DNA of 36,364 nt from Burkholderiaceae bacterium. GTDB taxonomy: Bacteria; Pseudomonadota; Gammaproteobacteria; Burkholderiales; Burkholderiaceae_F. Below are positions 3,880-33,933 of the stretch, piece by piece. A program made the position numbers and the translations under genes. Position 1 is the first letter of the stretch; every line of letters begins with the position of its first letter. Under the pieces are notes generated by a model that saw only the letters and a list, made by a program, of their open reading frames with translations, searched no databases and had not been told where the DNA came from. The stretch covers positions 1 through 36,364 of the forward strand of contig DAINBQ010000002.1 in NCBI GenBank assembly GCA_036732825.1, written 5' to 3'.

Positions 3880-4303
3880 AGAGTTGCTCGGCGCGTTCGG
3901 CGAACGAGTCGACCATCGAGTTCGCGATCGCATCGAACACCGGTGCGACCGCCCGTCCGAGCCATCCGCTTGCGAACTCGTAGTGCAGCGACAGGTGAAC
4001 CTTGCACGCGCCTGGCCGCAGCGGGAGGAAATGCCAGTGGCCGGTCAGCGCACGGAACGGTCCTTCGACGAGACTGATCCGGATCTGCTCCGGATAACGA
4101 TGGTCGTTGCGCGTCGTGAACCGCGTGCGGATGCCCAGATAGGCGATGTCGATGCTCGCATCGACCCCGCCCTCGTGATCCGCGATCACGCGCGATCCCT
4201 CGCACCACGGCAGGAACGCCGGATACGCCTCGACGTCGGCGACCAGATCGAACATCTGTTCGGCGCTGTAGTGGACGTAGACGGAGCGATCGACGCGTGG
4301 CAT
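3866..4303 (-). CDS. ratA: SRPBCC/START-fold RatA-family protein (ribosome association toxin / Coq10-like)
   Basis: [34 protein letters not shown]...[12 protein letters not shown] resembles E. coli RatA (YfjG). The start was set at the MPRV methionine by N-terminal homology. The gene is divergent from smpB. Confidence 0.8.
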
Positions 4304-4325
4304 GGCGAGCCGGAGATACACTCGA

Positions 4326-4811
4326 ATGTTCGGGGATTCTATTCAGGCAGGCACGACCGCAGTGGCCATCGTTCAGAACAAGAAGGCGCAGCATGACTAC
4401 TTCATCGAGGAGCGGTACGAGGCCGGGCTGGTGCTCGAAGGCTGGGAAGTGAAGGCAATCCGTGCCGGCCACGTGCAGCTGGGCGAAGCATATGTCGTGA
4501 TCCGCAATGGCGAACTCTTCCTGCTCAATGCCCATGTCAGTCCGCTGCCGACTGCGTCGACGCATATCACGCCCGAAGCGACGCGAACACGCAAGCTGCT
4601 GATGCATTCGAACGAGATTCGCAAGCTGATCGGCAAGGTGGAGCGCGCGGGATACGCGCTGGTACCACTCGACCTTCACTACAGCAAGGGCCGCGTGAAG
4701 CTGGAGGTCGGCCTCGCGAAGGGCAAGCGGCAGTTCGAGAAGCGCGCCTCGGAAGCCGACAAGGACTGGAAGCGGCAGCAGAACCGGTTGCTGAAGTCGC
4801 GCAGTCGCTGA
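4326..4811 (+). CDS. smpB: SsrA-binding protein SmpB
   Basis: [31 protein letters not shown]...[13 protein letters not shown]...[22 protein letters not shown]. The start at MFGDS leaves the same N-terminal spacing as E. coli SmpB. The ATG at 4302 is an alternative. Confidence 0.92.
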
Positions 4812-5232: not shown

Positions 5233-5477
5233 CTCGACCTCCTCGGATTCGCTGCCGCGCGGTACCCAGTGTACCCAGCGCATTGGGTGAGAGCGGCAGA
5301 GCGCCATGAGGACTGAAGACGCGAGCTGCAATGGCTATTGCAGGGATCAAGTCGACGCTTGTTCGCGCCGCAAAAGGTTTGACAACGCCGAGCGGCACCA
5401 CTTACCGTAGTTACATATCACGCCGCCCGCCCCGCCTGCACTTGGCGGTGCGCCTCGTACGGTGCCAGGGAGCCAAG

Positions 5478-5675
5478 ATGCCGAAGTCGGGACGTCGAAC
5501 CGCGCGGCTGGTCGCGCTATGCATGCTGGGCTGTCTGCTGTTTAACTATCCGATCCTGGCGCTGTTCAACCGCCCTGCCGACTTTCTCGGCATTCCGGTG
5601 CTGTACGCATGGATCTTCGGCGCCTGGACGGTGCTGATTGTGCTGATGGCTCACGCGGTCGAACGCGAAGACTAG
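5478..5675 (+). CDS. DUF3311-like small two-TM membrane protein (accessory subunit type found with SSS transporters)
   Basis: 65 aa: MPKSGRRTARLVALCMLGCLLFNYPILALFNRPADFLGIPVLYAWIFGAWTVLIVLMAHAVERED. It has two hydrophobic helices around a DUF3311-like core (FN.P....G.P..Y.W). It lies upstream of an SSS-domain gene on the same strand. Confidence 0.6.
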   Translation: MPKSGRRTARLVALCMLGCLLFNYPILALFNRPADFLGIPVLYAWIFGAWTVLIVLMAHAVERED

Positions 5676-6034
5676 AACCTGTCTCAGAGTCCACGATGCA
5701 TCGCGTTGCGAAGAGAGGCGGGCGGATGCTAGGCGGTTGGCGAAGGACCGTAGCTTGGCCTACGGCCGAGCCGGCCAACAACGCAGACGCCCGCCACCGC
5801 AGCGGCAGAGCCGCTGCGTCGTCGGAAACCTCCCAAGAAGCGCACGCGCGTAGCGCGTGCTCAGCTTCGCAACCCTGCGGGGCGGGGTCGCTCATGTCGC
5901 AAGTGAGGGCGCGTGGCGTTGTTGCGGCTCCGGTCTTTGCATTGAGCAATGGTCCCCTAGCCGCGCCTAGCCTGCACCCAATGCAACGCCGCCGCGACCA
6001 CCGCGGATTTTGAGATAGGTTCCGGGCGCACAGC

Positions 6035-8788
6035 ATGCTCCAGGGCGGGTTCATCATCGCCACTTCGTTCGCCTACCTGGGGCTCCTTTTCGCGATCGCC
6101 TATTACGCCGACCAGCGGGCCGACAGCGGCCGCCCGGTCATAGCCAGCCCCTACATTTACAGCCTGTCGCTGGCCGTGTACGCGACGGCGTGGACGTTTT
6201 ACGGCAGTGTCGGCCGTGCCGCGAGCGACGGCGTCGGCTTCCTGCCGATCTACATCGGCCCGACGCTGATGATCGCGCTCTGGTGGCTGGTGCTGCGCAA
6301 GATCCTGCGCATCTCCAAGCAGAACCGCATCACGTCGCTGGCGGATTTCGTCGCTTCGCGTTACGGCAAGAGCGCGCTGCTGGGCGGCGTGGTCACGATC
6401 ATCGCGGTGGTCGGCATCGTGCCCTACATCTCCCTGCAATTGAAAGCGATCTCCAACAGTTTCACGATCTTGGTGCAGTACCCGGAGATCGTGATGCCAG
6501 CCAAGCTGGGCGCGGCACCCCTGTTGCAGGACACGGCACTGTGGGTGGCTCTGATCCTGGCACTGTTCACGATCGCATTCGGCACGCGCCATCTGGACGC
6601 CGCCGAACACCATCCGGGGATGGTGGCTGCGATCGCATTCGAATCCCTGGTCAAGCTGCTCGCGTTCGTCGCCGTCGGTGCTTTCGTGACCTGGGGAATT
6701 TACGACGGCTTTGGCGACGTGTTTGCGCGCGCCGCGGCGGTTCCGAGGATCGCTCAGTTGCTCACTCCGCTGGAAGTCGTGGCCGGCGGCTATGCGAGCT
6801 GGGTCTGGCTGACCATTCTGTCGATGCTGGCGATCATGTTCCTGCCACGCCAGTTCCAGGTCGCGGTCATCGAGAACATCGACGAAAGACACCTGAAGAA
6901 GGCGATCTGGGTGTTCCCCGCCTACATGCTGGCGATCAACATCTTCGTGCTGCCGATCGCCTTCGGCGGCCGGTTGCACTTTCCGGCAGGCAACGTCGAT
7001 GCCGACACCTTCGTGCTGACCTTGCCGATGGCCGAGCATCAGGAACTGTTGGCGCTGCTGGTGTTCATCGGCGGGCTATCTGCGGCCACCGGCATGGTGA
7101 TCGTCGAGACGATCGCGTTATCGACGATGGTCTGCAACGACCTGCTGATGCCCGTGCTGCTGCGCATGCGGCAGCTGCGCCTGGCCGCGAGGCCCGACCT
7201 GACCACCCTGATCCTTGGCATCCGGCGCGGCGTGATCGTGCTGGTGCTGCTGCTCGGGTATCTGTACTTCCGCCTGGCCGGCGAGGCCTATGCGCTGGTG
7301 TCGATCGGGCTGATCTCGTTCGCAGCGGTCGCGCAATTCGCCCCGGCCATCATCGGTGGCATCTACTGGCGGGGCGCAACACGGCGTGGTGCACTCGCCG
7401 GTCTGATCGCAGGGTTTGGCGTGTGGCTGTATACGCTGCTGCTGCCCGCGCTCTCACGCTCCGGCTGGTTGCCGATCTCCTTTCTGGAACACGGCCCGTT
7501 CAGCATCGAACTGCTAAAGCCGCTCGCCTTGTTCGGGCTCACGGGGCTGGACCAGATCACGCACGCGATGATCTGGAGCATGATCGCCAACATCGGACTG
7601 TATGTGGGCGTTTCAATGGCCGGCACGCAGTCGGCCGTCGAGCGCCGGCAGGCAAGCGTGTTCGTCGACGTGTTCCGGCACGAGGCCGGCGGAGCGCGCT
7701 TCTGGCGCGGCACGGCCTCGGCACGCGATCTGTATGCGGTGCTGGCTCGGTTCATCGGCGTCACCGCGGCTGACACCGCGTTTGCCGACTACGCGCGGGC
7801 GCGTGGACTTTCCTGGCCCAACGATGAACTGATGGCGGACGCCGAGTTCGTTCACTACGTCGAGACCCAACTGGCCGGCGCAATAGGCGCGGCTTCGGCC
7901 CGCATCATGATCGCCTCCGCGGTCAAGGAAGAGGCACTGACGCTGGAAGAGGTAAGCGCGATCCTCGACGAAGCGTCGCAGGTGGTCGTCTACAGCCACC
8001 GGCTGGAGCAGAAGTCGCGGGAACTGGAATTGGCCACCGCCGAACTGCGCGCGGCCAACGAACGACTGAAGGAACTCGACCGCCTGAAGGACGACTTCAT
8101 TTCCACGGTGACACATGAACTGCGCACGCCGCTGACCTCGATCCGCGCGTTCTCCGAGATACTGTTGGCCAACCCGAAGGTGGATCTTGACCAGCGCATG
8201 GAGTTTCTCGGCATCATCACCCGCGAAACCGAGCGGCTGACGCGGCTGATCAACCAGGTGCTTGACCTGGCGAAGATCGCTTCCGGCCGCGCTGAATGGC
8301 AAATGACGCGGGTCGACGTGCGCGAGGTCGTGGCCGACAGCCTGGCCCGGATGAGCCAGGTATTCAAGGAAAAGGGCGTTCAGCTCGAGGCTCGACTGCC
8401 CGAGCACACGCCGCCGGTGCAGGTCGATGTCGACCGCCTGATCCAGGTCTTGATGAACCTGCTGTCCAATGCATTGAAATTCAGTCCGGAGGGCCGCGGC
8501 CGGGTCGAGGTGACGTTGCGCGTGCTCGACGGCGAGGTGCGCATCGACGTGCGCGACAACGGGCCTGGTGTGCGCCGCGAGGATCAGGCACTCATCTTCG
8601 ACAAGTTCTGGCAGGGGGGCGACACTCTGGTCGCCAAGCCGCCGGGAACGGGTCTGGGGCTGAATATCAGCCGCCAGATCGTCGAATACTTCGGCGGCCG
8701 CATCTGGGTTGAAAGCGAACCGGGCGCCGGCGCATGCTTTGCTTTCACGCTGCCGCTGGCGCCGGCATCGACTCTCGCGCCCGCCTGA
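6035..8788 (+). CDS. Sensor histidine kinase with N-terminal sodium:solute symporter (SLC5/SSS) domain and STAC-like linker (CbrA/CrbS-type architecture, no C-terminal receiver)
   Basis: The first ~530 aa are polytopic and PutP/ActP-like. A soluble linker follows (ADAEFVHYVETQLAGAIGAASARIMIASAVK), then a coiled coil. All kinase boxes are intact: H-box FISTVTHELRTPLTSI (His codon 8114-8116), N-box NLLSNALKF, G1 DNGPGV, F FDKF and G2 GTGLGLNISRQIV. Confidence 0.9.
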   Translation: MLQGGFIIATSFAYLGLLFAIAYYADQRADSGRPVIASPYIYSLSLAVYATAWTFYGSVGRAASDGVGFLPIYIGPTLMIALWWLVLRKILRISKQNRITSLADFVASRYGKSALLGGVVTIIAVVGIVPYISLQLKAISNSFTILVQYPEIVMPAKLGAAPLLQDTALWVALILALFTIAFGTRHLDAAEHHPGMVAAIAFESLVKLLAFVAVGAFVTWGIYDGFGDVFARAAAVPRIAQLLTPLEVVAGGYASWVWLTILSMLAIMFLPRQFQVAVIENIDERHLKKAIWVFPAYMLAINIFVLPIAFGGRLHFPAGNVDADTFVLTLPMAEHQELLALLVFIGGLSAATGMVIVETIALSTMVCNDLLMPVLLRMRQLRLAARPDLTTLILGIRRGVIVLVLLLGYLYFRLAGEAYALVSIGLISFAAVAQFAPAIIGGIYWRGATRRGALAGLIAGFGVWLYTLLLPALSRSGWLPISFLEHGPFSIELLKPLALFGLTGLDQITHAMIWSMIANIGLYVGVSMAGTQSAVERRQASVFVDVFRHEAGGARFWRGTASARDLYAVLARFIGVTAADTAFADYARARGLSWPNDELMADAEFVHYVETQLAGAIGAASARIMIASAVKEEALTLEEVSAILDEASQVVVYSHRLEQKSRELELATAELRAANERLKELDRLKDDFISTVTHELRTPLTSIRAFSEILLANPKVDLDQRMEFLGIITRETERLTRLINQVLDLAKIASGRAEWQMTRVDVREVVADSLARMSQVFKEKGVQLEARLPEHTPPVQVDVDRLIQVLMNLLSNALKFSPEGRGRVEVTLRVLDGEVRIDVRDNGPGVRREDQALIFDKFWQGGDTLVAKPPGTGLGLNISRQIVEYFGGRIWVESEPGAGACFAFTLPLAPASTLAPA

Positions 8789-8865
8789 CGCCCGGCCGTC
8801 GGTGTGAAGCAGGCGTCCGCGACAACACTGCGTAATGTGTTGATACCAGACCATCAGGGGTAGTC

Positions 8866-9261
8866 ATGAGCGAAACGACGCGCAAGGTGCTCATCGTTGA
8901 TGATGAGCCGAACATCGTCACCGCACTCGAATTCCTGCTCAAGCGGAGCGGCTATGACGTACGGCTGGCGGCGAACGGCGCCGAGGCGCTGGAGCAGGTC
9001 GAAACCTACCGGCCGGATGTCGTCCTCATGGACGTCATGATGCCGATCAAGAGCGGTTTCGAGGTCTGCCAGAGAATGCGGGAACGACCCGACCTGGCGC
9101 AGATCAAAATCGTGATGCTGTCGGCCAAAGGCAGCGAGGCCGAAGTCAGCAAGGGCCTGTCGCTCGGCGCCGACCTTTACATCACCAAGCCATTTTCCAC
9201 GCAGGAACTGGTGTCCACGATCAACCGGCTGTTCGAACCGGGCGGAACGCCGAGCCAATGA
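8866..9261 (+). CDS. Stand-alone CheY-like response-regulator receiver (no output domain)
   Basis: 131 aa. It has KVLIVDDEP, the phospho-acceptor context VVLMDVMMP (Asp56 codon 9031-9033), LSAKG and YITKPF. Its stop overlaps the next gene's ATG (ATGA at 9258-9261). Confidence 0.9.
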   Translation: MSETTRKVLIVDDEPNIVTALEFLLKRSGYDVRLAANGAEALEQVETYRPDVVLMDVMMPIKSGFEVCQRMRERPDLAQIKIVMLSAKGSEAEVSKGLSLGADLYITKPFSTQELVSTINRLFEPGGTPSQ

Positions 9262-11402
9262 GATTCTTGCGCGGCGTCTGGCTCTGGGTACTGATCGCCT
9301 GCGGCGGCGTGCTCCTGGTGCTCGCTACCGGGGCGTTACTGCTTTATCTCGCGACGGACACCGAACGCAGACCAATTCTCAGCGCTTTGGCAAGCGAATC
9401 CGCGCCCCTGTTGTCCTTTGGTACGACCATCCTGCTCGTGGTCGCCGGCATGGCGGCACACTGGCTGTTTCGCCGTTATCCGCATGCGGCACGCCAGCTC
9501 GCCGAGCAGTCGCGCAGCGTGCTGGCCGCCGAGCACGGCTTTCGCGTGGCTGCGGCGGACGCGCCGGAACTGGCCGACGTCGCCTCTGCAATCAACCAGT
9601 TGGCCGACGCCTACCACCGCGTCGAGCAGGATCTCGATCAGCGCAGCGCCGACGCGCGGGCGCGCGTCGAGGAAGAGCGTGACCGCTTCGCAGCTCTGAT
9701 GTCGGAGCTTTCGCAGGGCGTGCTGGTGTGCAACGCCGACGGGCGCATCCTGCTCTACAACTCGCGCGCCGCAGCGTTGCTGGCACCGTTCGTCGGCAGC
9801 GCACCGCGCGGCGATTACAAACCGCTCGGCCTCGGCCGTTCGGTACTCGCGTTGCTCGACCGCAATCAGGTCGCGCATGCATTGGACTTGATTCAGCAGC
9901 AGCTCGATCACGTAGATCGGCCGCACGCGCGTTTTGTCGTCTCGGTTGCCAATGGCGCTCTGCTCCGCGTGCAGGTGGCGCCGTTCCTCGGAGCGGAGGG
10001 GCTTGTAGCCGGCATGGTATTTACCTTCGATGACGTGAGCGGCATGGTCGGCCGCGAAGCTCAACGCCTGCGGCTATTGCAGTCGCTGGCGACCGGCACG
10101 CGTGCGCCTGCGGCCAACCTGCGCGCAGCGGCAGAGAACCTCGCCGGGTATCCGGACATGCCGGCCGACCAGCGCAAACAATTCGTTGAAATCGCCGTTG
10201 CCGAGTCGCGGATCCTGACTGACCGGCTGAACACCGCGCTGCGCGAGTATGCCGATGCACTGAAGGGCAGCCTGACGCTGGACGACATGCGCGCGGTCGA
10301 CTTGCTGGCAGTTGTGCAGCGGCGCATCAGCGATGTACTGCAGCTGCCGACCTCAATCGAGGAAGCCGACTCGGAACTGTGGTTGCGCGTAGACAGTTAT
10401 GCGATCGTGCAGGCGATGACCTTCCTGGCGGCACGCCTCGCTGGCGACTACCCGATCCACGGTTTTCAGCTGCGCGCCAGCAGCGGCGGCGGCTTTGCCG
10501 AGGTCGATCTGATCTGGACGGGCGCAATCGTCAGCAGCGAAGCACTGTCGCTGTGGGAAGGCGAACCAATGCGGATCGGAGCCGAGGAAACACCGCTCTC
10601 GCTGCGTGACGTGCTCGAGCGCCACGGCGCCGAGGCGTGGCTGCAGGTCGACAAGATCCGCCAAATCTCGCGCTTCCGCTTCCTGCTGCCGCGCGGAGAG
10701 GCTGCGGCGGCGTTGGCCTACAAGACAAGCACCGCGGAAAGCCGGCCGGAGTTCTATGACTTCGATTTGTTCGACCGTATCGATACGGCCGGTGCGCTGG
10801 CTGAACGCAAGCTGTCGGAGCTTTCGTACACGATATTCGATACGGAAACCACGGGACTGGAGCCGTCGGCCGGCGACGAGATAATCTCGATGGGTGCGGT
10901 TCGCATTGTCAACGGCCGTTTGCTGAAGCAGGAAGTGTTCGAGCAACTGGTCAACCCGCGCCGGTCGATCAGCCGCGAGTCAGTTGCCGTGCACGGAATC
11001 GAGGCGCGCCAGTTGCTCAATGAGCCGCCGATCGAACAGGTGCTGCCGCGGTTCCATCGCTTCTGCGAGGATACGGTGCTGGTGGCTCACAACGCCGCGT
11101 TCGACATGCGTTTCCTCGAACTGAAGGAAGCCGCCGCCGGAGTGCACTTCGGTCAGCCGGTGCTCGACACGCTTCTGCTTTCGGCGGTCGTGCACCCGAG
11201 CCTGGACAATCACGATCTGGATACGATTGCCGAACGTGTCGGTGTCCGCGTGATCGGGCGGCACACCGCGCTCGGCGATGCACTGGTGACAGCCGAAGTG
11301 TTCCTGCGTCTGCTGCCACTGCTTGCCGAACGTGGCATCGTCACTCTGGCGCAGGCGCTCGAGGCGTCTCGCGCAAGCTACCTTGCGCGCCTTCAGTACT
11401 GA
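9258..11402 (+). CDS. Membrane-anchored HAMP/PAS sensor with degenerate histidine-kinase core fused to a DEDDh (DnaQ/PolIII-epsilon-like) 3'-5' exonuclease
   Basis: Two N-terminal TM helices are followed by a HAMP-like segment and a PAS-like segment (LSQGVLVCNADGRILLYNSRAAALL). The DHp-like segment LQSLATGTRAPAANLRAAAENL aligns to an H-box with Thr where His is expected. I see no G1/G2 glycine boxes. The C-terminus carries ExoI FDTETTGL (D528, E530), ExoII VAHNAAFDMRFL (D616) and ExoIII HTALGDALVTAEVF (H669, D674). Confidence 0.85.
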   Translation: MRFLRGVWLWVLIACGGVLLVLATGALLLYLATDTERRPILSALASESAPLLSFGTTILLVVAGMAAHWLFRRYPHAARQLAEQSRSVLAAEHGFRVAAADAPELADVASAINQLADAYHRVEQDLDQRSADARARVEEERDRFAALMSELSQGVLVCNADGRILLYNSRAAALLAPFVGSAPRGDYKPLGLGRSVLALLDRNQVAHALDLIQQQLDHVDRPHARFVVSVANGALLRVQVAPFLGAEGLVAGMVFTFDDVSGMVGREAQRLRLLQSLATGTRAPAANLRAAAENLAGYPDMPADQRKQFVEIAVAESRILTDRLNTALREYADALKGSLTLDDMRAVDLLAVVQRRISDVLQLPTSIEEADSELWLRVDSYAIVQAMTFLAARLAGDYPIHGFQLRASSGGGFAEVDLIWTGAIVSSEALSLWEGEPMRIGAEETPLSLRDVLERHGAEAWLQVDKIRQISRFRFLLPRGEAAAALAYKTSTAESRPEFYDFDLFDRIDTAGALAERKLSELSYTIFDTETTGLEPSAGDEIISMGAVRIVNGRLLKQEVFEQLVNPRRSISRESVAVHGIEARQLLNEPPIEQVLPRFHRFCEDTVLVAHNAAFDMRFLELKEAAAGVHFGQPVLDTLLLSAVVHPSLDNHDLDTIAERVGVRVIGRHTALGDALVTAEVFLRLLPLLAERGIVTLAQALEASRASYLARLQY

Positions 11403-11416
11403 ACCGGAACGCCGCC

Positions 11417-12892
11417 ATGGCAGAGCACTTCCCGACTCCGATTGGCAAGCCCGACCGCCGACTTGCCGGCGAGCAGCGAACACTGGCACAGCCGCTGCGC
11501 AGCCTCATCCGCGGCGCGCCACTGGTCTGCAACGAAAAAGATACGGTTCGCACAGCCGTTCAGCGGATGCACGATGAAAATGTCGGTGCGATCGTCGTTC
11601 TCGACGGCCGGAACCGCCCGATCGGGATCTTCACCGAACGCGACCTGTTGCGGGCAACACTGCAGCTGCAGCTCGATGCGCCAGTGACCGACGTCATGTC
11701 AAGCGACCCGCTGTCTCTGCCCGACCACACGCCCTCGTACGAAGCTGCATTGCTGATGATCCAGCACGGCATCCGCCACGTGCTGGTCAATCGAGACGAT
11801 CAGCTTGTCGGCGTGATTTCGGAGCGTGATCTGTTTTCGCTGCAGCGCCTCGGCCTGGGCGAGCTGACGATGGAGACCCGGCTGGCACGCGACGTCGATA
11901 CATTGGCCGGCCTCGCCGGACGGGTGCGGCAGCTGACGCGGATACTGCTCGAACAGGGAGTCGCGGCAGAGCAGTTGACGTTGTTCGTTTCCGTGTTGAA
12001 CGACCGCATCTCCGAACGGATCATAGAGCTGGTGCGCAAGCGTCACAGCTGGGAGCGTATCGGCTGGTGCTGGCTTGCGTTCGGCAGCGAGGGTCGGCTC
12101 GAACAGACTTTCGCCACCGATCAGGACAACGGGCTGGTATTCGTTGCCCACGACGACCGTGCGCCGGCACGGGTGCGCGAGCTGCTTTTGCCGTTTGCGC
12201 GCGAAGTCAACGAGGCGCTCGATGCCTGCGGCTTTCCGCTGTGCAAGGGCAACGTGATGGCATCCAACCCGGAGCTGTGCCTGTCGATGGCGGAATGGAA
12301 GGCCAAGCTCGAAGGCTGGCTCGCCAACTCGGACCCGAAGGCGCTGCTAGATGCCGCGATATGTTTCGATTTCCGCGCGCTGTACGGTGACGCTCGACTG
12401 GCGTCGGACCTGCGCCGATGGTTCCTCGAAGTCACGCGCAAGCGGCCGAACTTCCTGCGCCTGATGGCAGAGAACGCGCTCCAGGTAAAGCCTCCGCTGG
12501 GTCGCTGGCGCGACTTCATCACCGAGGATGCACCCAACACACCGGGCACGATCAACCTGAAGATGTACGGCGTGCGGCCCTTCGTCGATGCGGCGCGCGT
12601 CTATTCACTGGCCCACGGGTTGCCGCAGACGAACACTGCAGACCGCCTGCGCGGGGCCGGATCCGCCGGCGCGCTGCCGACGGATGAAACCCGGTCGATG
12701 CTGGCTGCGTTCTTCCTGATCCAGCGCATCCGGCTCGCGCACCAGGCGACTTCCGACACCTTTGCTGCCCACGACGGATCGAACCGGATCGACCCGGACA
12801 CGCTCAATCAGCTCGACCGAAGATCGCTGAAGGAGGCGTTCCGTATCGCCCGCGACCTGCAGTCACGGCTCGCGATGGACTATCACTTGTAG
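11417..12892 (+). CDS. CBS-pair + DUF294 (GlnD-type Pol-beta-fold) nucleotidyltransferase with DUF294_C substrate-binding-like domain
   Basis: Two CBS motifs (VGAIVVLDGRNRPIGIFTERDLL and IRHVLVNRDDQLVGVISERDLF). The NTase signature is LAFGSEGRLEQTFATDQDNGLVF (G223-S224 at 12083-12088; D235/D237 at 12119-12127). The helical C-terminal half includes KMYGVRPFVDAARVYSL. The gene starts 14 nt after the exonuclease gene. Confidence 0.85.
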   Translation: MAEHFPTPIGKPDRRLAGEQRTLAQPLRSLIRGAPLVCNEKDTVRTAVQRMHDENVGAIVVLDGRNRPIGIFTERDLLRATLQLQLDAPVTDVMSSDPLSLPDHTPSYEAALLMIQHGIRHVLVNRDDQLVGVISERDLFSLQRLGLGELTMETRLARDVDTLAGLAGRVRQLTRILLEQGVAAEQLTLFVSVLNDRISERIIELVRKRHSWERIGWCWLAFGSEGRLEQTFATDQDNGLVFVAHDDRAPARVRELLLPFAREVNEALDACGFPLCKGNVMASNPELCLSMAEWKAKLEGWLANSDPKALLDAAICFDFRALYGDARLASDLRRWFLEVTRKRPNFLRLMAENALQVKPPLGRWRDFITEDAPNTPGTINLKMYGVRPFVDAARVYSLAHGLPQTNTADRLRGAGSAGALPTDETRSMLAAFFLIQRIRLAHQATSDTFAAHDGSNRIDPDTLNQLDRRSLKEAFRIARDLQSRLAMDYHL

Positions 12893-14322: not shown

Positions 14323-16719
14323 TCAAGCAGAACGGGCGAGCCGCTGCCAGGTTTCCACGACGGTGTCCGGATTCAGCGAAATCGACTCGATGCCCTGCTC
14401 CATCAGCCATTCCGCGAAGTCCGCGTGGTCCGATGGCCCCTGGCCGCAGATGCCGATGTACTTGCCGCGCGCGCGGCACGCGGAGATCGCCTGCGCAATC
14501 AGTGCCGTGACCGCGGGGTCGCGCTCGTCGAAGCCCTCGGCAACCAGCCCCGAGTCGCGGTCGAGCCCGAGCGTCAGCTGCGTCAGGTCGTTCGAACCGA
14601 TCGAGAAACCGTCGAAATAATCGAGGAAGCGGTCGGCGAGAATCGCATTGGAAGGCACCTCGCACATCATGATCAGGCGCAGGCCGCCGCTGCCGTCGGC
14701 GGCCTTGCCGCTGTCGCGCGACAGGCCATGCTCCGCAAGCAATTCGGTGACGCGCCGCGCCTCGGTCAGCGTGCGCACGAACGGCACCATGATCTGGACG
14801 TTCGTGAGCCCCATTTCCTCGCGAACCCTCTTCAGCGCGGCCGCTTCCATGCGGAAGCACTCGCGGAACGAATCCGCGATGTAGCGCGCGGCGCCACGAA
14901 AGCCGAGCATCGGGTTCTCCTCGTCGGGCTCGTAGCGGGTGCCCCCGATCAGCTTCTTGTATTCGTTGCTCTTGAAGTCCGACATGCGGACGATCACCGG
15001 CTTGGGCCAGAACGCAGCCGCGATCGTCGCGATGCCTTCCGCCAGCCTGGCCTCGAAGAACGCGCGTGGGCTGCGGTAACCGGCGGAAAGCCGCTCGACG
15101 GCGTGCTTGAGCTCCGGATCGAGATTCGGATAGTCGAGCACCGCTTTCGGGTGCACGCCGATGTTGTTGTTGATGATGAACTCGAGTCGCGCGAGCCCGA
15201 CGCCGGCGTTCGGCAAGGACTGGAAGTCGAACGCCAGGTGCGGATTGCCGACGTTCATCATGATCTTCACCGGTATCTTCGGCATCTCGCCGTGCATCAC
15301 CGACTCGACTTCCATTTCGAGCGCGCCGGCGTAGATGTTGCCGGTATCGCCTTCCGCGCAGCAGACCGTGACGACAGCGCCTTCGACCAGGTCCTCGGTC
15401 GCCGTGCCGCAGCCGACGACGGCCGGGATGCCGAGTTCGCGCGCGATGATGGCCGCATGACAGGTGCGGCCGCCGCGATTCGTGACGATGGCCGATGCGC
15501 GCTTCATCACGGGCTCCCAGTTGGGATCCGTCATGTCCGTCACGAGCACGTCGCCCGGTTGCACGCGATCCATCTCGCGTACGTCCTGGATGATGCGAAC
15601 CGGCCCGATCCCGATCTTCTGGCCGATCGCCCGGCCGGAAGCCAGGATTGCGCCCTTGCCCTTCAGGCGGAAGCGCTGCTGCTTCTCGTTGCCGGCCTGC
15701 GATTTCACCGTCTCGGGGCGCGCCTGCAGGATGTAGATGCCGCCGTCGACGCCGTCCTTGCCCCACTCGATGTCCATCGGCCGGCCATAGTGCTGCTCGA
15801 TCGTCACCGCGTAGCGGGCGAGCTCGAGCACGTCGGCATCGGTGAGCGAAAACGAGTGGCGCTCGGTCTCCGGGACGTCGACCGTCCGCACGGTCCGTCC
15901 GTTCGCGGCCGCGGGATCGAACTCCATCTTGATCAGTTTCGAGCCCAGGCTGCGGCGGATGATCGGGAACTTGCCAGCCGCCAGCATCGGCTTGTGCACG
16001 TAGAACTCGTCGGGGTTGACGGCCCCCTGCACGACGGTCTCGCCCAGGCCATAGCTCGACGTGATGAAGACGACGTCCCGGAATCCCGACTCGGTGTCCA
16101 TCGTGAACATGACACCCGCCGCCCCTCGGTCGCTGCGCACCATGCGCTGCACACCCGCCGAAAGCGCCACCTCGCCTTGCGCGTAGCCCTTGTGCACGCG
16201 GTACGCGATCGCGCGGTCGTTGTAGAGCGAGGCGAACACCTCCCGGATGCGATGCACAACCGCGTCGAGCCCGGACACGTTCAGGAAGGTCTCCTGCTGT
16301 CCGGCGAACGACGCGTCCGGCATGTCCTCGGCCGTCGCGCTGGAGCGGACAGCGAATGATGTTTCACTTGAAGATCCGTGCGTAAGCTCTTGAAATATTA
16401 TTCTAATTTCCGCCTCGAAATCAGGCGGGAACGGACAGGAAACGATCCATTCGCGGATCTCGCGACCGGCTTCGGTCAGCGCCCGCACATCGTCGACATC
16501 GAGCGTCGCCAGCCGCTTTGAGATGCGCTCCCTCAGTTGTCCCGCGTCGAGAAAGGCGCGAAAAGCCTCCGCCGTGGTCGCAAACCCGTCCGGGACGTTG
16601 ATGCCGGCTTGAGACAGCTGGCTCAGCATCTCGCCCAGCGATGCGTTCTTGCCGCCGACCGATTCGACATCGCTCATCCGGAGCTGGGAAAACGGTACGA
16701 CGTACTTGCCGCGCTGCAT
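14323..16719 (-). CDS. ppsA: Phosphoenolpyruvate synthase (pyruvate, water dikinase)
   Basis: [37 protein letters not shown], the phospho-His region [24 protein letters not shown] and the C-terminal PEP-utilising domain [12 protein letters not shown]. The start was trimmed to [10 protein letters not shown] (ATG at 16719, AGGAGA RBS); the track start is 16800. Confidence 0.95.
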
Positions 16720-16811
16720 GCGCTCTCCTGATCGAGCTTCGTGTGACAGAATCGGCGGCATTTTACCGGTCGCACTTCGTTCGATCGTGCGCCGCATCAA
16801 CGTGAGCCTGC

Positions 16812-17660
16812 ATGCCCGATCGCCTCACCACTTCCTACGACCGCACCGTCTTCTTCGTATCGGACGGAACCGGCATCACGGCCGAGACACTCGGTCACAG
16901 CGTGCTGACGCAGTTCGAGAACCTGCGCTTCCGGCCGCAGCGGCTGCCGTTCATCGACTCGGCCGACAAGGCCCGCGAGGCGGCGGTTCGCATCAACGAG
17001 GCCGGAGCGCGGGACGGCAAGCGTGCCGTGGTGTTCTCGACGCTCGTCAACCCGGCGGTCGCTGCCACGCTGCGCGCCGGCACAGACGCTTTCTTCGTCG
17101 AGATGTTCGAGACTTTCGTCGAGCCGCTCGAGCGCGAGCTGGGACTGCAGTCGACGCACACGATCGGCCGTTCGCACAACATCGCGGTCAACTCCGAGGA
17201 CTACAAGAACCGCATCGAGGCCATCAACTTCACGCTTGCGCATGACGACGGCCAGTCGGCCCGCGGACTGGAAAAGGCCGACGTCATCCTGGTTGGCGTG
17301 TCGCGATCCGGCAAGACGCCGACGAGCCTCTACCTGGCCATGCAATACGGCGTGAAGGCCGCCAACTATCCGCTGATCCCCGAGGACTTCGAGCGCGGGC
17401 AACTACCGAGCGCGCTTCCTCAGCACAAGCCGAAGATCTTCGGCTTGTCGATCAGCCCGGAACGGCTGGCCGAAGTGCGTCACGAGCGGCGTCCCAACAG
17501 CCGCTACGCCTCGCCGGAAAACTGCCGCTACGAGGTCGAGGCTGCCGAACGCATGATGCGACGCGAAGGAATCCGCTGGCTCTCTTCGACGACCAAATCG
17601 ATCGAGGAGATCGCGGCGACGATCATGCAGGAAGTCCGGCTCGAAAGACGTTCCTACTAA
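16812..17660 (+). CDS. ppsR: PEP synthase regulatory protein (bifunctional kinase/pyrophosphorylase, DUF299)
   Basis: [25 protein letters not shown] and the P-loop [16 protein letters not shown]. Divergent from ppsA, the conserved arrangement. Confidence 0.93.
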
Positions 17661-25545: not shown

Positions 25546-26898
25546 TCAGGAAAGCAGCCGAATGAAGTCGTTGTATAGCGCCAGCACGGTCAGCAGTCCG
25601 AGCAGCGCGATGCCTGCACGCTGCCCCCACTCCACGACCCAGTCTGCGGGCGGGCTGCCCTTGAAAATCTCGATCAGATAATACAGTAAGTGCCCTCCAT
25701 CGAGCATCGGAATGGGCAGCAGGTTCAGCACCGCGAGGCTGATCGATACAAGAGCGAGAAAACCGAGGAACGAAGCGAGTCCGACGCGCGCTGTCTGCCC
25801 TGCGTAGTCTGCGATCGTCACCGGTCCCGACAGGTTTTTCCACGATGCCTGGCCCGTGATCATCTTGCCGAGCATCTTCAGCGAGAACAGCGCGGTATCG
25901 GCTGTCTTGCCGACCGCGAGCCCGATGCTCTCGAAGGGGCCGTACTGCACCTTCACCAGCGCCGGCCGGTCATTCAGTTCGGCACCCATGCGGCCGAACG
26001 AATTTCCGCTGTCGTCGGTCACGCGCGCAGGCGTGACTTCGATTCGGAGCTCGGATCCTTCGCGCTCGATGTGCAGCTCGATCGGCCTCTCCGCGGAGGA
26101 GCGGATGCGATCGATCAGTTGTCGCGCCGAAGTGATCGGTTGGCCCTCGACGGCAACGATGCGGTCGCCGACGCGCAGCCCCGCGCGCAGTGCCGCGCTG
26201 TCGTCGGCGACGCGACCGACGCGCGGCGGGCCGCTGTAGGCAATGACACCCAGTCTGCCGATCACATCGCCGTCGAGATCATCGGCATTCAGGCGCGCCG
26301 GATCCAGCGTCAGGGAGCGTCGACGGCCGTCAAGCCCGTCGACTTCAAGCGCGATCGGGCGCTCCCCGACGACGCGCTGGAGCAGCAGCCAGCGCAGCTC
26401 GTTCAGCGAACGAACCGCGTCACCGTCGACTTCGACGACCGTATCGCCCGCCAGAACGCCGGCGCGTGCGGCCGCCGTCGCCGCCGGGGGCGATCCCAAC
26501 ATCGCCTTCGGTTCGAAGACACCGACAACGTTGAGCACCCAGTACACGGCAACAGCCAGCAGCAGATTGGCGACCGGTCCTGCAAGAACAATCGCGATGC
26601 GCTTGGCGACCGGTTGCCGGTTGAATGCGCGCGGCAGGTCGCGCGCGCTGATCACGCCGCAATCCGGATCACGCTCGTCGAGCATGCGAACGTAGCCACC
26701 GAGAGGCAGGGCCGCGAGCACCCACTCGGTGCGATCTTCCCCACGTACCCAGCGCGCCAGCGGGCGGCCGAATCCGATCGAGAAACGCAGCACCTTGACG
26801 CCGCATTTCTTCGCGACCCAGTAATGGCCGTATTCGTGGATCACGATCAGCACGCCGAGCGTGACGAGGAACGCGGCAACGGTCGTCAGGAAATTCAT
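25546..26898 (-). CDS. rseP: RIP site-2 metalloprotease RseP
   Basis: HExxH motif in IHEYGHYWVAKK, PDZ regions, and LNLLPIPMLDGGHL. Confidence 0.93.
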   Translation of the reverse strand: MNFLTTVAAFLVTLGVLIVIHEYGHYWVAKKCGVKVLRFSIGFGRPLARWVRGEDRTEWVLAALPLGGYVRMLDERDPDCGVISARDLPRAFNRQPVAKRIAIVLAGPVANLLLAVAVYWVLNVVGVFEPKAMLGSPPAATAAARAGVLAGDTVVEVDGDAVRSLNELRWLLLQRVVGERPIALEVDGLDGRRRSLTLDPARLNADDLDGDVIGRLGVIAYSGPPRVGRVADDSAALRAGLRVGDRIVAVEGQPITSARQLIDRIRSSAERPIELHIEREGSELRIEVTPARVTDDSGNSFGRMGAELNDRPALVKVQYGPFESIGLAVGKTADTALFSLKMLGKMITGQASWKNLSGPVTIADYAGQTARVGLASFLGFLALVSISLAVLNLLPIPMLDGGHLLYYLIEIFKGSPPADWVVEWGQRAGIALLGLLTVLALYNDFIRLLS

Positions 26899-26904
26899 CG
26901 TTCC

Positions 26905-28071
26905 CTAGGCTCTAAGGGCAGTGCAGTCGAGCGCGCGCTCGCGCGCCTCGCGGTCGATTTCGAGGACGTCTTCGACGCTCCGTGGCGCCGCCGGGTCACA
27001 GGCGGCAAGCACACGTTCGATCGTGGGCGCGATCTCGGTGAAGCGCAACCGGCCATCCAGGAAGGCTTGGACAGCAACCTCGTTCGCTGCGTTCAACACG
27101 GTCGGGGCGGCATTGCCGCGCAGCAGGGCCTGGTAGGCATAGTCCAGGCAGGGAAAGCGCCGGCGATCGGGCGCCTCGAATGTCAGCGCGCCCAGTTGCG
27201 TGAAGTCGAGCCGGCGCGCCCCGCTCACGATCCTCTCGGGCCATGCCAGTGCATAGGCCAGCGGCGTGCGCATGTCGGGACTGCCCATCTGGGCCAGGAC
27301 CGAACCGTCCGCGAACTCGACCATCGAGTGGATCACGCTTTGCGGATGGATGACGACTTCGATGCGTTCTGCCGGCATGCCGAACAGCCAGCTTGCCTCG
27401 ATGACCTCGAGTCCCTTGTTCATCAACGTCGCGGAGTCCACCGATATCTTGCGCCCCATCACCCAGTTCGGATGCGCACAGGCTTCGTCCGGCGTTACCG
27501 TTTCCAGATCGTCACGGGTACGGAACGGACCTCCCGACGCGGTCAACACGAGCCGCGCACCACGGCGTTCCGCCTCACGCACCCCGGCCAGGCACTGGTG
27601 GATCGCGTTGTGCTCCGAATCGACCGGCAGCAACTCGCCGCCGCCACGCTGCACCGCGGCGACCAGCAGCGCGCCAGCGCAGACGACGGCTTCCTTGTTC
27701 GCGAGAAGCAGCCGCTTGCCGGCCTCGGCGGCCGCAAGCGTCGGCACCAGCCCTGCCGCGCCGACGATGGCAGCCAGCACGGTGTCGACCTCGGCGGACT
27801 GTGCAACCTCGACCAGCGCTGCACGCCCCGCGCGCGCGACACTGGTCGCGCCCCGGCTGCGCAGCGCCTCGCGCAGCTGGCTTTCCAGCGCGGGATCGGC
27901 AATGACTGCGATTGCCGGCTTGAAGCGCGCAGCGAGGTCGGCCAGCGCTTCGACGCTGCTCTGCGCGGTCAGTGCGTGGATCCGGTAGCGCTGCGGGTGG
28001 CGCGCGATGACATCGAGCGCGGACAGTCCGATCGAGCCCGTTGCGCCGAGGATCGTGATGCTCTGCATCAT
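26905..28071 (-). CDS. dxr: 1-deoxy-D-xylulose 5-phosphate reductoisomerase
   Basis: [25 protein letters not shown] and [13 protein letters not shown]. Its ATG overlaps the cdsA stop. Confidence 0.95.
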
Positions 28072-28898
28072 CGGGCCAATCCGTCGATCAGCGCCGCGAG
28101 CGGCAGAACCGGCACGAGCGCATCGATACGATCGTAGACGCCGCCGTGCCCCGGCAGCAGATGGCTGCTGTCCTTCACGCCGGCCTGGCGCTTGAGCAGG
28201 CTTTCGTAGAGGTCGCCGAAGATAGACATCGCGACCAACACCATGATCAGGATGACCGCGACCGGCAGGACAAATTCATCAAGCAATCGATTCGTGAAGA
28301 TTGCTGCAGTCGGCAGCAAGCGCCATGCCGCGATTGCGACGACCAGCACCGCCCCGATCGCGCCATAGACGCCGGCCCATGTCTTGCCGGGGCTGATGTG
28401 GGGCGCCAGCTTCGTCCGGCCGAACGCACGTCCGGCGAAGTATGCGGCGGTGTCGGCGACCCAGACGATCACGAACACGGAAAGCAGCATTGCAGCCCCT
28501 TGCAGCAGGAAGTGCACGAGCGCGATCCAAGCCGCGCCGAGCAGCAGGAGCGCGAGCACCGTCGCAGCCGCGCGCGGCAGCCGGACTGCCAATGCATCTG
28601 CCTGCATCAGGAGGCCGGCGATGCCGAGCCAGATGATCGTCGCGAGCAACGCGACCGGCAACACCGCGCTCATGACCGGGCCGCCTGCAAAGTGCAGCGA
28701 ACCGGCCAGCAGCACGCCGAACGTGAACGCGATCGTCAACGCGGTCGCTCGACCCCATCCGACGAGCTGCAGCCATTCCGCGGCCGCCGCGACGATCGCG
28801 AGCGTCGCAAGCAGCGCGAACACTGTCGGCGACCATGCCAGCGCGCCGCCCAGGATCGCCAGCAGGATGACAGCCGTGATGACTCGCTTCTTCAGCAC
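28068..28898 (-). CDS. cdsA: Phosphatidate cytidylyltransferase
   Basis: Polytopic membrane protein carrying the CdsA signature [29 protein letters not shown]. Confidence 0.9.
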
Positions 28899-33090: not shown

Positions 33091-33933
33091 ATGCCGATCG
33101 TGATCAAGAACCCGCAGGACATCGAAGGCATGCGTCTGGCCGGGCGGCTCGCGGCAGAAGTGCTCGATTTCATCGCGCCGCACGTCAGGCCGGGCGTCAC
33201 CACCGGCGAGCTTGACCGACTGTGCCACCAGTACATGGTCGAGGCACAGGGCACCGTTCCGGCCCCGCTGAACTACGCGCCGCCGGGCTACCGGCCGTTT
33301 CCGAAGGCGATCTGCACGTCGGTCAACCACCAGGTCTGCCACGGCATCCCGGGGGACCGCGTCCTGAAGGCGGGCGACGTGGTCAACATCGACGTGACGG
33401 TCATCAAGGACGGGTACCACGGTGACACCAGCCGCATGTACTTCGTCGGCGAACCCTCGATCGCGGCTCGCAGGCTGTGCGAGGTGACCTACGACTGCAT
33501 GTGGCTCGGCATCCAGCAGGTCCGTCCGAGCGCGACGATCGGCGACATCGGCCATGCAATCCAGACGCACGCGGAAAAGCACGGCTACAGCGTCGTCCGC
33601 GAATTCTGCGGGCACGGAATCGGCCGCAAGTTCCACGAGGAGCCGCAGATCCTGCATTACGGCAAGCCCGGCACGCTGGAATCGCTCCAGGCAGGAATGA
33701 CCTTCACGGTCGAGCCGATGATCAACGCGGGACGCCGGGAGATCAAGGAACTCGCCGATGGCTGGACGATCGTGACCAAGGATCATTCGCTGTCGGCCCA
33801 GTGGGAGCACACGGTGCTCGTCACGGATATCGGCTACGAAGTGATGACGCTTTCGGCAGGCGCGCCACCGGTGCCGGCGTTTGTCAATGCCGGACAGTCC
33901 GGCGCCGCGGCGACGGAGCCCGCCGCCGCCTGA
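33091..33933 (+). CDS. map: Type I methionine aminopeptidase
   Basis: VCHGIPGDRVLKAGDVVNIDVTVIKDGYHGDTSRMY, FCGHGIG and EPMIN...WTIVTKDHSLSAQWEHTV. Confidence 0.95.
   Translation: MPIVIKNPQDIEGMRLAGRLAAEVLDFIAPHVRPGVTTGELDRLCHQYMVEAQGTVPAPLNYAPPGYRPFPKAICTSVNHQVCHGIPGDRVLKAGDVVNIDVTVIKDGYHGDTSRMYFVGEPSIAARRLCEVTYDCMWLGIQQVRPSATIGDIGHAIQTHAEKHGYSVVREFCGHGIGRKFHEEPQILHYGKPGTLESLQAGMTFTVEPMINAGRREIKELADGWTIVTKDHSLSAQWEHTVLVTDIGYEVMTLSAGAPPVPAFVNAGQSGAAATEPAAA

Follow-up and report, generated by a model that had tools for sequence, protein, structure and literature searches.

A 36,364-nucleotide stretch of DNA from a Burkholderiaceae bacterium (contig DAINBQ010000002.1, positions 1 to 36,364; hereafter the window) carries a cassette of five co-directional open reading frames (ORFs) on its plus strand, between positions 5478 and 12892 (Table 1). 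The cassette brings together a transporter-like sensor histidine kinase, a receiver without an output domain, a DEDDh exonuclease fused to a pseudo-kinase and a DUF294 nucleotidyltransferase. The layout given in the initial annotation, which had been made from the sequence alone, stands. All five genes lie on the plus strand, the stop of the receiver gene overlaps the start of the pseudo-kinase–exonuclease gene in an ATGA (9258–9261), and 14 nt (11403–11416) separate the latter from the transferase gene, as read directly from the sequence. These genes are real and the cassette is not a chance assembly: domain E-values go down to 1e-43, and the arrangement recurs in dozens of species. A promoter and terminator scan gave nothing that exceeds shuffled expectation, so the operon structure is based on spacing and synteny.

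Table 1. Features of the cassette, in window coordinates.
Feature	Position	Strand	Length	Remarks
Small membrane peptide ORF	5478-5675	+	65 aa	
Insert without coding capacity, between small ORF and kinase	5676-6034	none	359 nt	looks MITE-like
SLC5/STAC sensor histidine kinase, transceptor type	6035-8788	+	917 aa	
Single-domain receiver, CheY-like	8866-9261	+	131 aa	Response_reg
Pseudo-histidine-kinase and DEDDh 3'-5' exonuclease fusion, membrane-anchored	9258-11402	+	714 aa	PAS_4 and RNase_T
CBS-pair and DUF294/DUF294_C nucleotidyltransferase	11417-12892	+	491 aa	Pfam domains

A short form of the DUF294/exonuclease pair is already known as a target of the MxtR/ErdR (CrbS/R) system. What appears to be new here is the probable direct wiring of the exonuclease to a phosphorelay through a pseudo-kinase. 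A literature search returned no description of an SLC5/STAC kinase combined with a receiver-only partner and a pseudo-kinase–exonuclease.

The kinase is a relative of the transporter-like sensors CbrA and CrbS/MxtR. Pfam recognizes only HisKA and HATPase_c in it; the SSF transporter family gives no match at E≤10, and STAC has no separate Pfam match. We therefore assign the SLC5 domain by homology to CbrA and MxtR. Residues 8–627 match the SLC5-STAC region of P. putida CbrA, known from cryo-EM (PDB 10ED), at E 3e-72. A P. aeruginosa MxtR/CrbS homologue shares 44% identity with the sensor half over 701 aa. Both alignments, that to CbrA running through chain residue 589, span the STAC region. The designation sodium:solute symporter (SSS, SLC5)–STAC–kinase in the initial annotation thus holds through these two homologues, though not through Pfam SSF. 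The kinase core is a different matter, with only 28% identity to the MxtR/CrbS homologue. The SLC5-like membrane domain and STAC are followed by a coiled coil, a dimerization and histidine phosphotransfer (DHp) domain with H694, and a catalytic and ATP-binding (CA) domain. H694, N808/N812, D841-G843-G845 and G871-G873-G875 (the phospho-acceptor and the N, G1 and G2 boxes) are conserved in at least 95% of 65 orthologues, and from these residues the DHp and CA domains are predicted to be catalytically competent.

What does not accompany this kinase is a transcriptional output. Reviews list only CbrA, CrbS/MxtR, RpuS and PrlS as SLC5/STAC kinases, all with DNA-binding regulators. By contrast, no DNA-binding output domain is encoded in the cassette, as the initial annotation had stated. 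Its sole regulator is the receiver, in place of the LuxR- or NtrC-type protein that is usual for this kinase class, and a receiver alone is likewise found in 65 of 70 related loci. A DNA-binding regulator for the kinase could still be encoded elsewhere in the genome.

The receiver is of the OmpR/PhoB type (Response_reg, E 2.7e-32, 111.7 bits). Its phospho-acceptor D56 and K108 are at least 95% conserved, and it shares 47% identity with a P. denitrificans receiver that precedes a long exonuclease. We considered that it might be the receiver of a CrbS-like hybrid kinase that had split off, and rejected this because it shares no more than 26% identity with the CrbS receiver and resembles OmpR/PhoB. 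Indeed, the window system and CrbS are built differently. CrbS is a PAS-containing hybrid kinase that works through the LuxR-type regulator CrbR and controls the enzyme pair transcriptionally, whereas the window kinase has neither a PAS domain nor a fused receiver and the exonuclease has a sensor-kinase-like input of its own. CbrA also differs: its ligand is histidine, it contains a PAS domain, and its signal goes to the sigma-54 activator CbrB.

A separate observation concerns the sensor region. On a plasmid of Azoarcus sp. KH32C (NC_020548.1, 202188–204035), an SLC5/STAC-like sensor region with 62% identity to the window kinase coincides with a gene whose annotation reads 'EAL domain-containing protein', a hint that SLC5/STAC sensors can be fused to cyclic di-GMP phosphodiesterase outputs.

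The 714-aa protein is a pseudo-kinase joined to an exonuclease, as had been recognized from the outset. Two transmembrane helices at its N-terminus are followed by a HAMP-like or coiled-coil helical segment, a PAS domain (~150–261), a two-helix hairpin of DHp type lacking the phospho-acceptor His (~263–338), a CA-like alpha/beta domain lacking the ATP boxes (~342–480) and the exonuclease (~520–700). The AlphaFold2 (AF2) model of the N-terminal 480 residues has block-mean predicted local distance difference test (pLDDT) values mostly of ~65–87, with short low-confidence linkers. The top Foldseek matches of this part are full-length sensor kinases, namely WalK, VicK, YF1, ThkA, DivL, HK853 and CpxA (E 2e-18 to 1e-7), and the family sequence profile likewise matches VicK, ThkA, DivL and HK853. 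Against the core of the window kinase, hhalign gives E 5e-5 and 26% identity; in this alignment the phospho-acceptor His is opposite T279, and the G1 and G2 boxes fall on 'WTGAI' and 'ETPLSL', respectively. Among 72 orthologues the residue in the place of this His is Glu in 56, Asp in seven, Gln in four and Thr in three, and the ATP boxes are replaced. The N-terminal part is thus a pseudo-kinase, having the kinase fold without the His and without the N, G1 and G2 boxes. T279 was also considered as a site of nucleotidylylation and discarded, because the position is Glu in 56 of the 72 wider orthologues.

The exonuclease half is intact. D528 and E530 (Exo I, DxE), D616 (Exo II), and H669 and D674 (Exo III, Hx4D) do not vary among the 72 sequences, and the nuclease is predicted to be active. 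RNase_T matches at E 2.5e-34, and the PolC exonuclease 2p1j at E 7e-40. The proofreading exonucleases of DnaQ and PolC share the Exo I–III motifs and the DEDDh residues with this domain and give its strongest sequence matches. The source annotation of the protein is 'DNA polymerase III subunit epsilon'. However, the scores fall far below the dnaQ equivalog cut-offs (TIGR01406, 110.3 bits against 222.7; PRK05711, 104.7 against 196), so such names are domain-level annotations. Unlike DnaQ and PolC, the protein is membrane-anchored and sensor-fused and lies in metabolic or signalling operons. A long exonuclease of P. denitrificans is 39% identical to it. Its exonuclease domain is 35% identical to the short exonuclease that partners DUF294 in P. 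aeruginosa and has the same C-terminal tail motif. Since the two belong to the same subfamily, we expect the long exonuclease to do the same job opposite a DUF294 enzyme.

One could place the output of the phosphorelay elsewhere. The receiver would then be a phosphate sink or connector, the pseudo-kinase would modulate the true kinase (for example as a DHp heterodimer), a distant DNA-binding regulator would provide the output, and the exonuclease would be incidental or act in DNA repair. The alignment of the pseudo-kinase with the window kinase core fits such a scheme, as do the frequent role of single-domain receivers as sinks and the polymerase name in the source annotation. Yet the invariant DEDDh residues indicate that nuclease activity is under selection, and the pair of receiver and long exonuclease is kept also where no SLC5 kinase adjoins. 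The low dnaQ scores, the membrane anchor and the metabolic operons likewise speak against an incidental or repair exonuclease. We find this explanation hardly probable.

The last gene encodes a putative nucleotidyltransferase of the Pol-beta superfamily, resembling GlnE and GlnD. Pfam identifies two CBS domains, DUF294 (PF03445) and DUF294_C (PF10335), the latter two at 147.5 and 142.5 bits, and the Pol-beta motif G223-S224...D235-x-D237 is at least 95% conserved. The AF2 model is good (pLDDT 86, predicted template modelling score 0.83). Beyond structures of CBS pairs, Foldseek matches the catalytic part to GlnE 1v4a (E 1e-7, 384 columns), GlnE 3k7d and DrrA 6yx5. The two GlnE entries are the two halves of the E. 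coli glutamine synthetase adenylyltransferase, and DrrA is a Legionella AMPylator. Structural neighbours of the CBS pair include AcuB, which binds AMP and ADP. A cyclic nucleotide monophosphate (cNMP)-binding domain, present in the Pseudomonas and Paracoccus versions, is absent here. DUF294_C has been classed with the C-terminal domains of GlnD and GlnE (PMC3710099). A fold closest to GlnE and DrrA gives some support to the reading that the transferase nucleotidylylates a protein.

An alternative is control at the RNA level. The exonuclease would be a signal-regulated 3'-5' RNase that breaks down or trims particular mRNAs or small RNAs from acetate or pyruvate metabolism, and the DUF294 protein would mark RNA 3' ends by tailing. 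DEDDh enzymes are chiefly nucleic-acid exonucleases, the nearest relatives here are of the PolC/DnaQ type, and poly(A) polymerases and CCA-adding enzymes are Pol-beta nucleotidyltransferases. Mechanistic speculation about mRNA decay has also come from the authors of a P. putida study (PMC9927547). On the other hand, the best structural matches of the transferase beyond the CBS pair are GlnE and DrrA rather than RNA-tailing enzymes, its C-terminal domain is classed with those of GlnD and GlnE, and neither an RNA-binding domain nor an Rfam element was found in the cassette. We hold RNA-level control to be unlikely.

A nucleotide second messenger could also be the currency. The transferase would make a linear or cyclic (oligo)nucleotide and the exonuclease would degrade it at a rate set by the phosphorelay. 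There are precedents for both halves: some DEDDh enzymes are dinucleotide specialists, such as Orn, which degrades pGpG, and some Pol-beta nucleotidyltransferases of the cGAS/DncV kind make signalling nucleotides. The cNMP-binding domain of longer DUF294 versions points the same way. However, no CD-NTase-like fold is among the top structural matches, no receptor or effector is conserved in the neighbourhood, and PADLOC finds no CBASS-like system. The messenger cycle, which the initial annotation had offered in the form of a short oligonucleotide or nucleotide signal, gains nothing from these results, and we rate it as rather improbable. PADLOC also leads us to dismiss the cassette as an anti-phage defence system; it reports generic domain-level matches to the DEDDh exonuclease, the receiver and the kinase, and none to the transferase.

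The cassette is a recurrent gene set. Relatives of the long exonuclease are encoded in over 526 species genomes. A search with the pseudo-kinase part by itself yields 330 cluster representatives at E≤1e-30, nearly all of ~700–740 aa, lengths that indicate the same fusion. We took a census of gene neighbourhoods with the long exonuclease as anchor, using tblastn, ORF clustering and Pfam labels on data with one genome per species (80 loci, 45 of them with full flanks). The gene immediately 5' of the long exonuclease encodes a receiver in 65 of 70 loci, and an SLC5/STAC kinase lies upstream on the same strand in 61 of 70. The DUF294 gene is adjacent downstream in 35/72 loci and within 10 kb in 36 of the 45 with full flanks. 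Genomes hold few DUF294 genes, and the chance of finding one within 20 kb is, by estimate rather than computation, of the order of 1%. An SSS permease accompanies 24/45 loci, frequently together with a small subunit of the DUF485 or DUF4212 kind, and an AMP-forming acyl-CoA synthetase 15/45; one or the other is present in 28/45.

A sample anchored on the other enzyme complements this census. It comprises ten annotated DUF294 loci of plasmids and chromids; the DUF294 gene is followed by one for a DEDDh exonuclease in nine and preceded by one for an SSS permease in six, and acs is present in four. Moreover, a receiver gene precedes all five long exonucleases of this sample and none of the four short ones, which ties the receiver specifically to the pseudo-kinase module.

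The gene set also survives reordering. Plasmid 1 of P. denitrificans PD1222 carries the full cassette next to cyoABC (L088, NC_008688.1 624884–631784), in the order DUF294, small peptide, kinase, receiver and long exonuclease, with overlapping stops and starts. The five genes stand in permuted order, with 4-nt overlaps, in both P. denitrificans and P. pantotrophus. Plasmid 1 of PD1222 also has a second operon (L082, NC_008688.1 31432–40293) composed of acs, DUF4212, SSS, cNMP-CBS-DUF294, a hypothetical gene, a receiver and a long exonuclease. That the set is kept through reordering and across Alpha-, Beta- and Gammaproteobacteria is strong evidence that it is a functional unit.

Several related loci hold additional copies or variants of the enzymes. 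In Rhodocyclales, the gene after a CBS-DUF294 gene close to the cassette encodes a ~220-aa pseudo-exonuclease, a homologue of the short exonuclease with all DEDDh residues replaced (L009:15184-15837, L012:15169-15837, L026:15198-15863 and L028:14016-14678); the homologue at L077:1741-2433 keeps them. This suggests that the small partner exonuclease can be non-catalytic where the long one is present. A short DUF294 paralogue (~330–340 aa, with DUF294 and DUF294_C and without CBS) often lies directly 3' of the long exonuclease and accompanies the CBS-DUF294 gene, for example at L002:13689-14684 and L009:12177-13199. Some Burkholderiales have a second receiver and long-exonuclease module, or a second set of peptide, kinase and receiver, a few kb downstream and after DUF485 and SSS permease genes (L002:17139-19694, L030:11834-14389 and L003:18605-21878).

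Published work on the short pair supplies a physiological context. The CrbS/R regulon of P. fluorescens includes the cNMP-CBS-DUF294 protein Pflu5625, a mutant of which shows no phenotype (PMC5715377). In P. aeruginosa PA3232–PA3235 (exonuclease, DUF294, actP and yjcH) are co-induced ~16-fold on propionate and tied to MxtR/ErdR (PMC9765439). The P. putida counterparts of PA3233–PA3232, pp_0354 and pp_0353, form one operon bound by ErdR (PMC9927547). The short pair is a direct target of MxtR/ErdR and co-induced with actP on acetate and propionate (PMC9927547; PMC9765439; PMC5715377), in a regulon that also includes acs and actP/yjcH. Both P. putida mutants are unimpaired on acetate; on pyruvate, growth of the exonuclease mutant is poor, like that of an actP-I mutant. 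The transferase mutant is silent, and the authors called the mechanism of the pair unclear (PMC9927547). These three studies, our census and the close conservation of the kinase–receiver–exonuclease arrangement bear out what the initial annotation had stated, namely that the DUF294/exonuclease pair often sits with acetate permease and acs genes under CrbS-type kinases. Its description of the pair as having no assigned biochemical function is also right, although 'unknown function' is an overstatement in view of the P. putida deletion phenotypes.

We propose that the cassette is a branch of the SLC5/STAC transceptor family (CrbS/MxtR, CbrA and RpuS) whose output is enzymatic rather than transcriptional. 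The hairpin peptide and the kinase would sense a short-chain monocarboxylate, of the acetate or pyruvate kind, or the flux of its transport. The kinase would autophosphorylate at H694 and pass the phosphate to D56 of the receiver. The phosphorylated receiver would dock on the His-less DHp domain of the membrane-anchored pseudo-kinase, as phosphorylated DivK does on DivL, and docking would turn the fused exonuclease on or off. The exonuclease would oppose the CBS-DUF294 transferase, a GlnE/DrrA-like enzyme whose CBS pair probably places it under the control of adenine nucleotides. The transferase would nucleotidylylate some component through which monocarboxylates are taken up or activated, and hydrolysis by the exonuclease domain would release the nucleotidyl group again as a 5'-nucleoside monophosphate (5'-NMP). 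Of all this, our data show which genes are present, which domains are intact or degenerate, that synteny is conserved, how the folds are related and that SSS permease and acs genes lie nearby in the genomes; the ligand, the docking, the sign of the regulation and the nature of the substrate are inferred. We give this model as a whole a probability of about 50%.

Each step has a rationale. The CrbS/MxtR-like sensor half, together with neighbourhoods rich in acs and acetate-type permeases, makes a short-chain monocarboxylate or its transport the likely stimulus. The DHp-CA pair is the canonical receiver-docking surface. As the intact receiver has no output domain and is translationally coupled to a partner whose only non-catalytic cytoplasmic surface is the His-less DHp-CA unit, and as a receiver gene occurs exactly where the exonuclease has this unit, docking is the most economical reading. 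The resemblance of the transferase to GlnE and DrrA favours protein nucleotidylylation as the write step. For the erase step, a 3'-5' exonuclease frees a 5'-NMP from an R-O-P-O5'-N linkage, which is chemically the removal of an O-linked NMP from a protein. The P. putida phenotypes, where loss of the eraser mimics loss of ActP-I and loss of the writer is silent, fit a modification that is inhibitory to a component of uptake or activation. Through the CBS pair, writing could be coupled to adenylate charge, a link made relevant by the fact that Acs turns ATP into AMP.

Known systems offer partial parallels. The Caulobacter pair DivL–DivK also combines a DHp-CA protein lacking the phospho-acceptor His with a receiver-only protein, and DivL matches the pseudo-kinase in structure (E ~5e-8) as well as in profile. 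However, DivL has Tyr at the His position and regulates the kinase CckA, whereas the window family has Thr or Glu there and an enzymatic output of its own, and it is by this analogy that we propose receiver binding. The DUF294 transferase resembles GlnE and DrrA in its catalytic and C-terminal domains, and the proposed logic of a writer and an eraser that work against each other in response to metabolic signals is that of the adenylylation and uridylylation cycles of GlnE and GlnD (on glutamine synthetase and PII) and of DrrA and SidD on Rab1. The known erasers of these cycles are nonetheless of other folds, namely a nucleotidyltransferase-fold phosphorylase (the GlnE N-domain), an HD domain (GlnD) and a PP2C-like domain (SidD), and never DEDDh.

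Several points weigh against the model. We know of no DEDDh enzyme that takes an NMP off proteins, nor of any biochemical activity in this exonuclease subfamily, and the literature search found no biochemical activity reported for any DUF294 protein. The AF2 model of the exonuclease domain has a pLDDT of 30–50, and our account of that domain is therefore drawn from its sequence alone. Nine of the 45 full-flank loci lack a DUF294 gene at a distance of up to 10 kb, which suggests that the exonuclease may work on its own as well. The annotated ORFs of the window include neither an SSS permease nor an acs gene. Finally, the 359-nt insert ahead of the kinase gene might impair kinase expression in this organism.

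A bolder form of the proposal is that the cassette is a fast, post-translational, carbon-side counterpart of the GlnD/GlnE cascade for nitrogen. Here a CBS-gated, GlnE-like enzyme would nucleotidylylate a protein of monocarboxylate uptake or activation, for instance the SSS permease or the acyl-CoA synthetase, the DEDDh domain would de-nucleotidylylate it, and a transporter-kinase phosphorelay through the DivL-like pseudo-kinase would set that activity directly. We regard this version as doubtful; if it were true, de-nucleotidylylation would be a new activity for the DEDDh fold.

The cassette matters because of the enzyme pair it contains. A DUF294 transferase and its partner exonuclease adjoin acetate permease and acs genes in many Proteobacteria, and their knock-outs give a puzzling pyruvate phenotype. 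Finding the exonuclease with a sensor-kinase-like input of its own, a dedicated receiver and a transporter-kinase in hundreds of species suggests that nuclease activity is the regulated output. The kinase, receiver, pseudo-kinase–exonuclease and transferase make up a minimal pathway that can be reconstituted, and through which a widespread enzyme pair becomes directly testable. P. denitrificans PD1222, with both its full cassette and its acs-SSS-DUF294-receiver-exonuclease operon, is genetically tractable. If writing and erasing do occur as proposed, the assimilation of short-chain carboxylates would be under a new kind of post-translational control and DEDDh domains would have a chemistry new to them; the widespread 'DNA polymerase III epsilon' annotations would also be corrected.

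The small ORF at the head of the cassette encodes a two-helix membrane peptide. Its start at 5478 is set by the closest relative, L001, and by an independent Joint Genome Institute (JGI) gene call; a longer version from an ATG at 5331 is backed by neither. No Pfam match at E≤10 was obtained for the 65-aa or the 114-aa version, and there was no PDB sequence match. The DUF3311 (PF11755) label of the initial annotation was accordingly dropped. By position and topology the peptide is best described as CbrX-like. CbrX attaches to the CbrA SLC5 domain as a helical hairpin, and cbrX is translationally coupled to cbrA (PMC13488458). A small peptide gene is kept just upstream of the kinase in many loci; the Paracoccus counterpart is an 81-aa 'hypothetical' that overlaps the kinase start, and in L001 the TGA of the small ORF directly abuts the kinase ATG (TGAATG), with no insert.

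The window differs from CbrX–CbrA and from its own relatives in the insert that separates the two genes, a feature missing from the initial annotation. This segment is GC-rich, has imperfect 17-nt terminal inverted repeats and folds with a z-score of -4.1 with both ends paired, and it looks like a miniature inverted-repeat transposable element (MITE). It is single-copy within the window. An exact 44-mer from it matches only the same locus in two sibling metagenome contigs, and there is no plasmid match, so we do not treat it as a multi-copy element. The insert may uncouple translation of the kinase from that of the small ORF. A structured RNA in the cassette or the insert was also considered and discarded, since no Rfam family reaches its gathering threshold anywhere in the 36-kb window.

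The surroundings of the cassette are ordinary. It is flanked by smpB and a YCII-like gene on one side and, on the other, by a convergent SPFH/NfeD pair and then ppsA; the remainder of the window is housekeeping (guaB, rnhB, lpxB, fabZ, skp, bamA, uppS and tsf). smpB lies at 4302–4811, yet no tmRNA reaches the Rfam gathering threshold in the window. Two long ORFs, at 25690–28137 (plus strand, 815 aa) and 33834–36341 (minus strand, 835 aa), have no Pfam match and a lower GC content at third codon positions (~0.72), and may be shadows of genes that lie in another frame or on the other strand. The gene ppsA, for phosphoenolpyruvate (PEP) synthase, is divergent to a gene for a PpsR-type regulatory kinase/pyrophosphorylase (PF03618) at 14323–17660, an ordinary pairing. 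With the convergent SPFH/NfeD pair in between, the cassette thus sits next to pyruvate/PEP metabolism.

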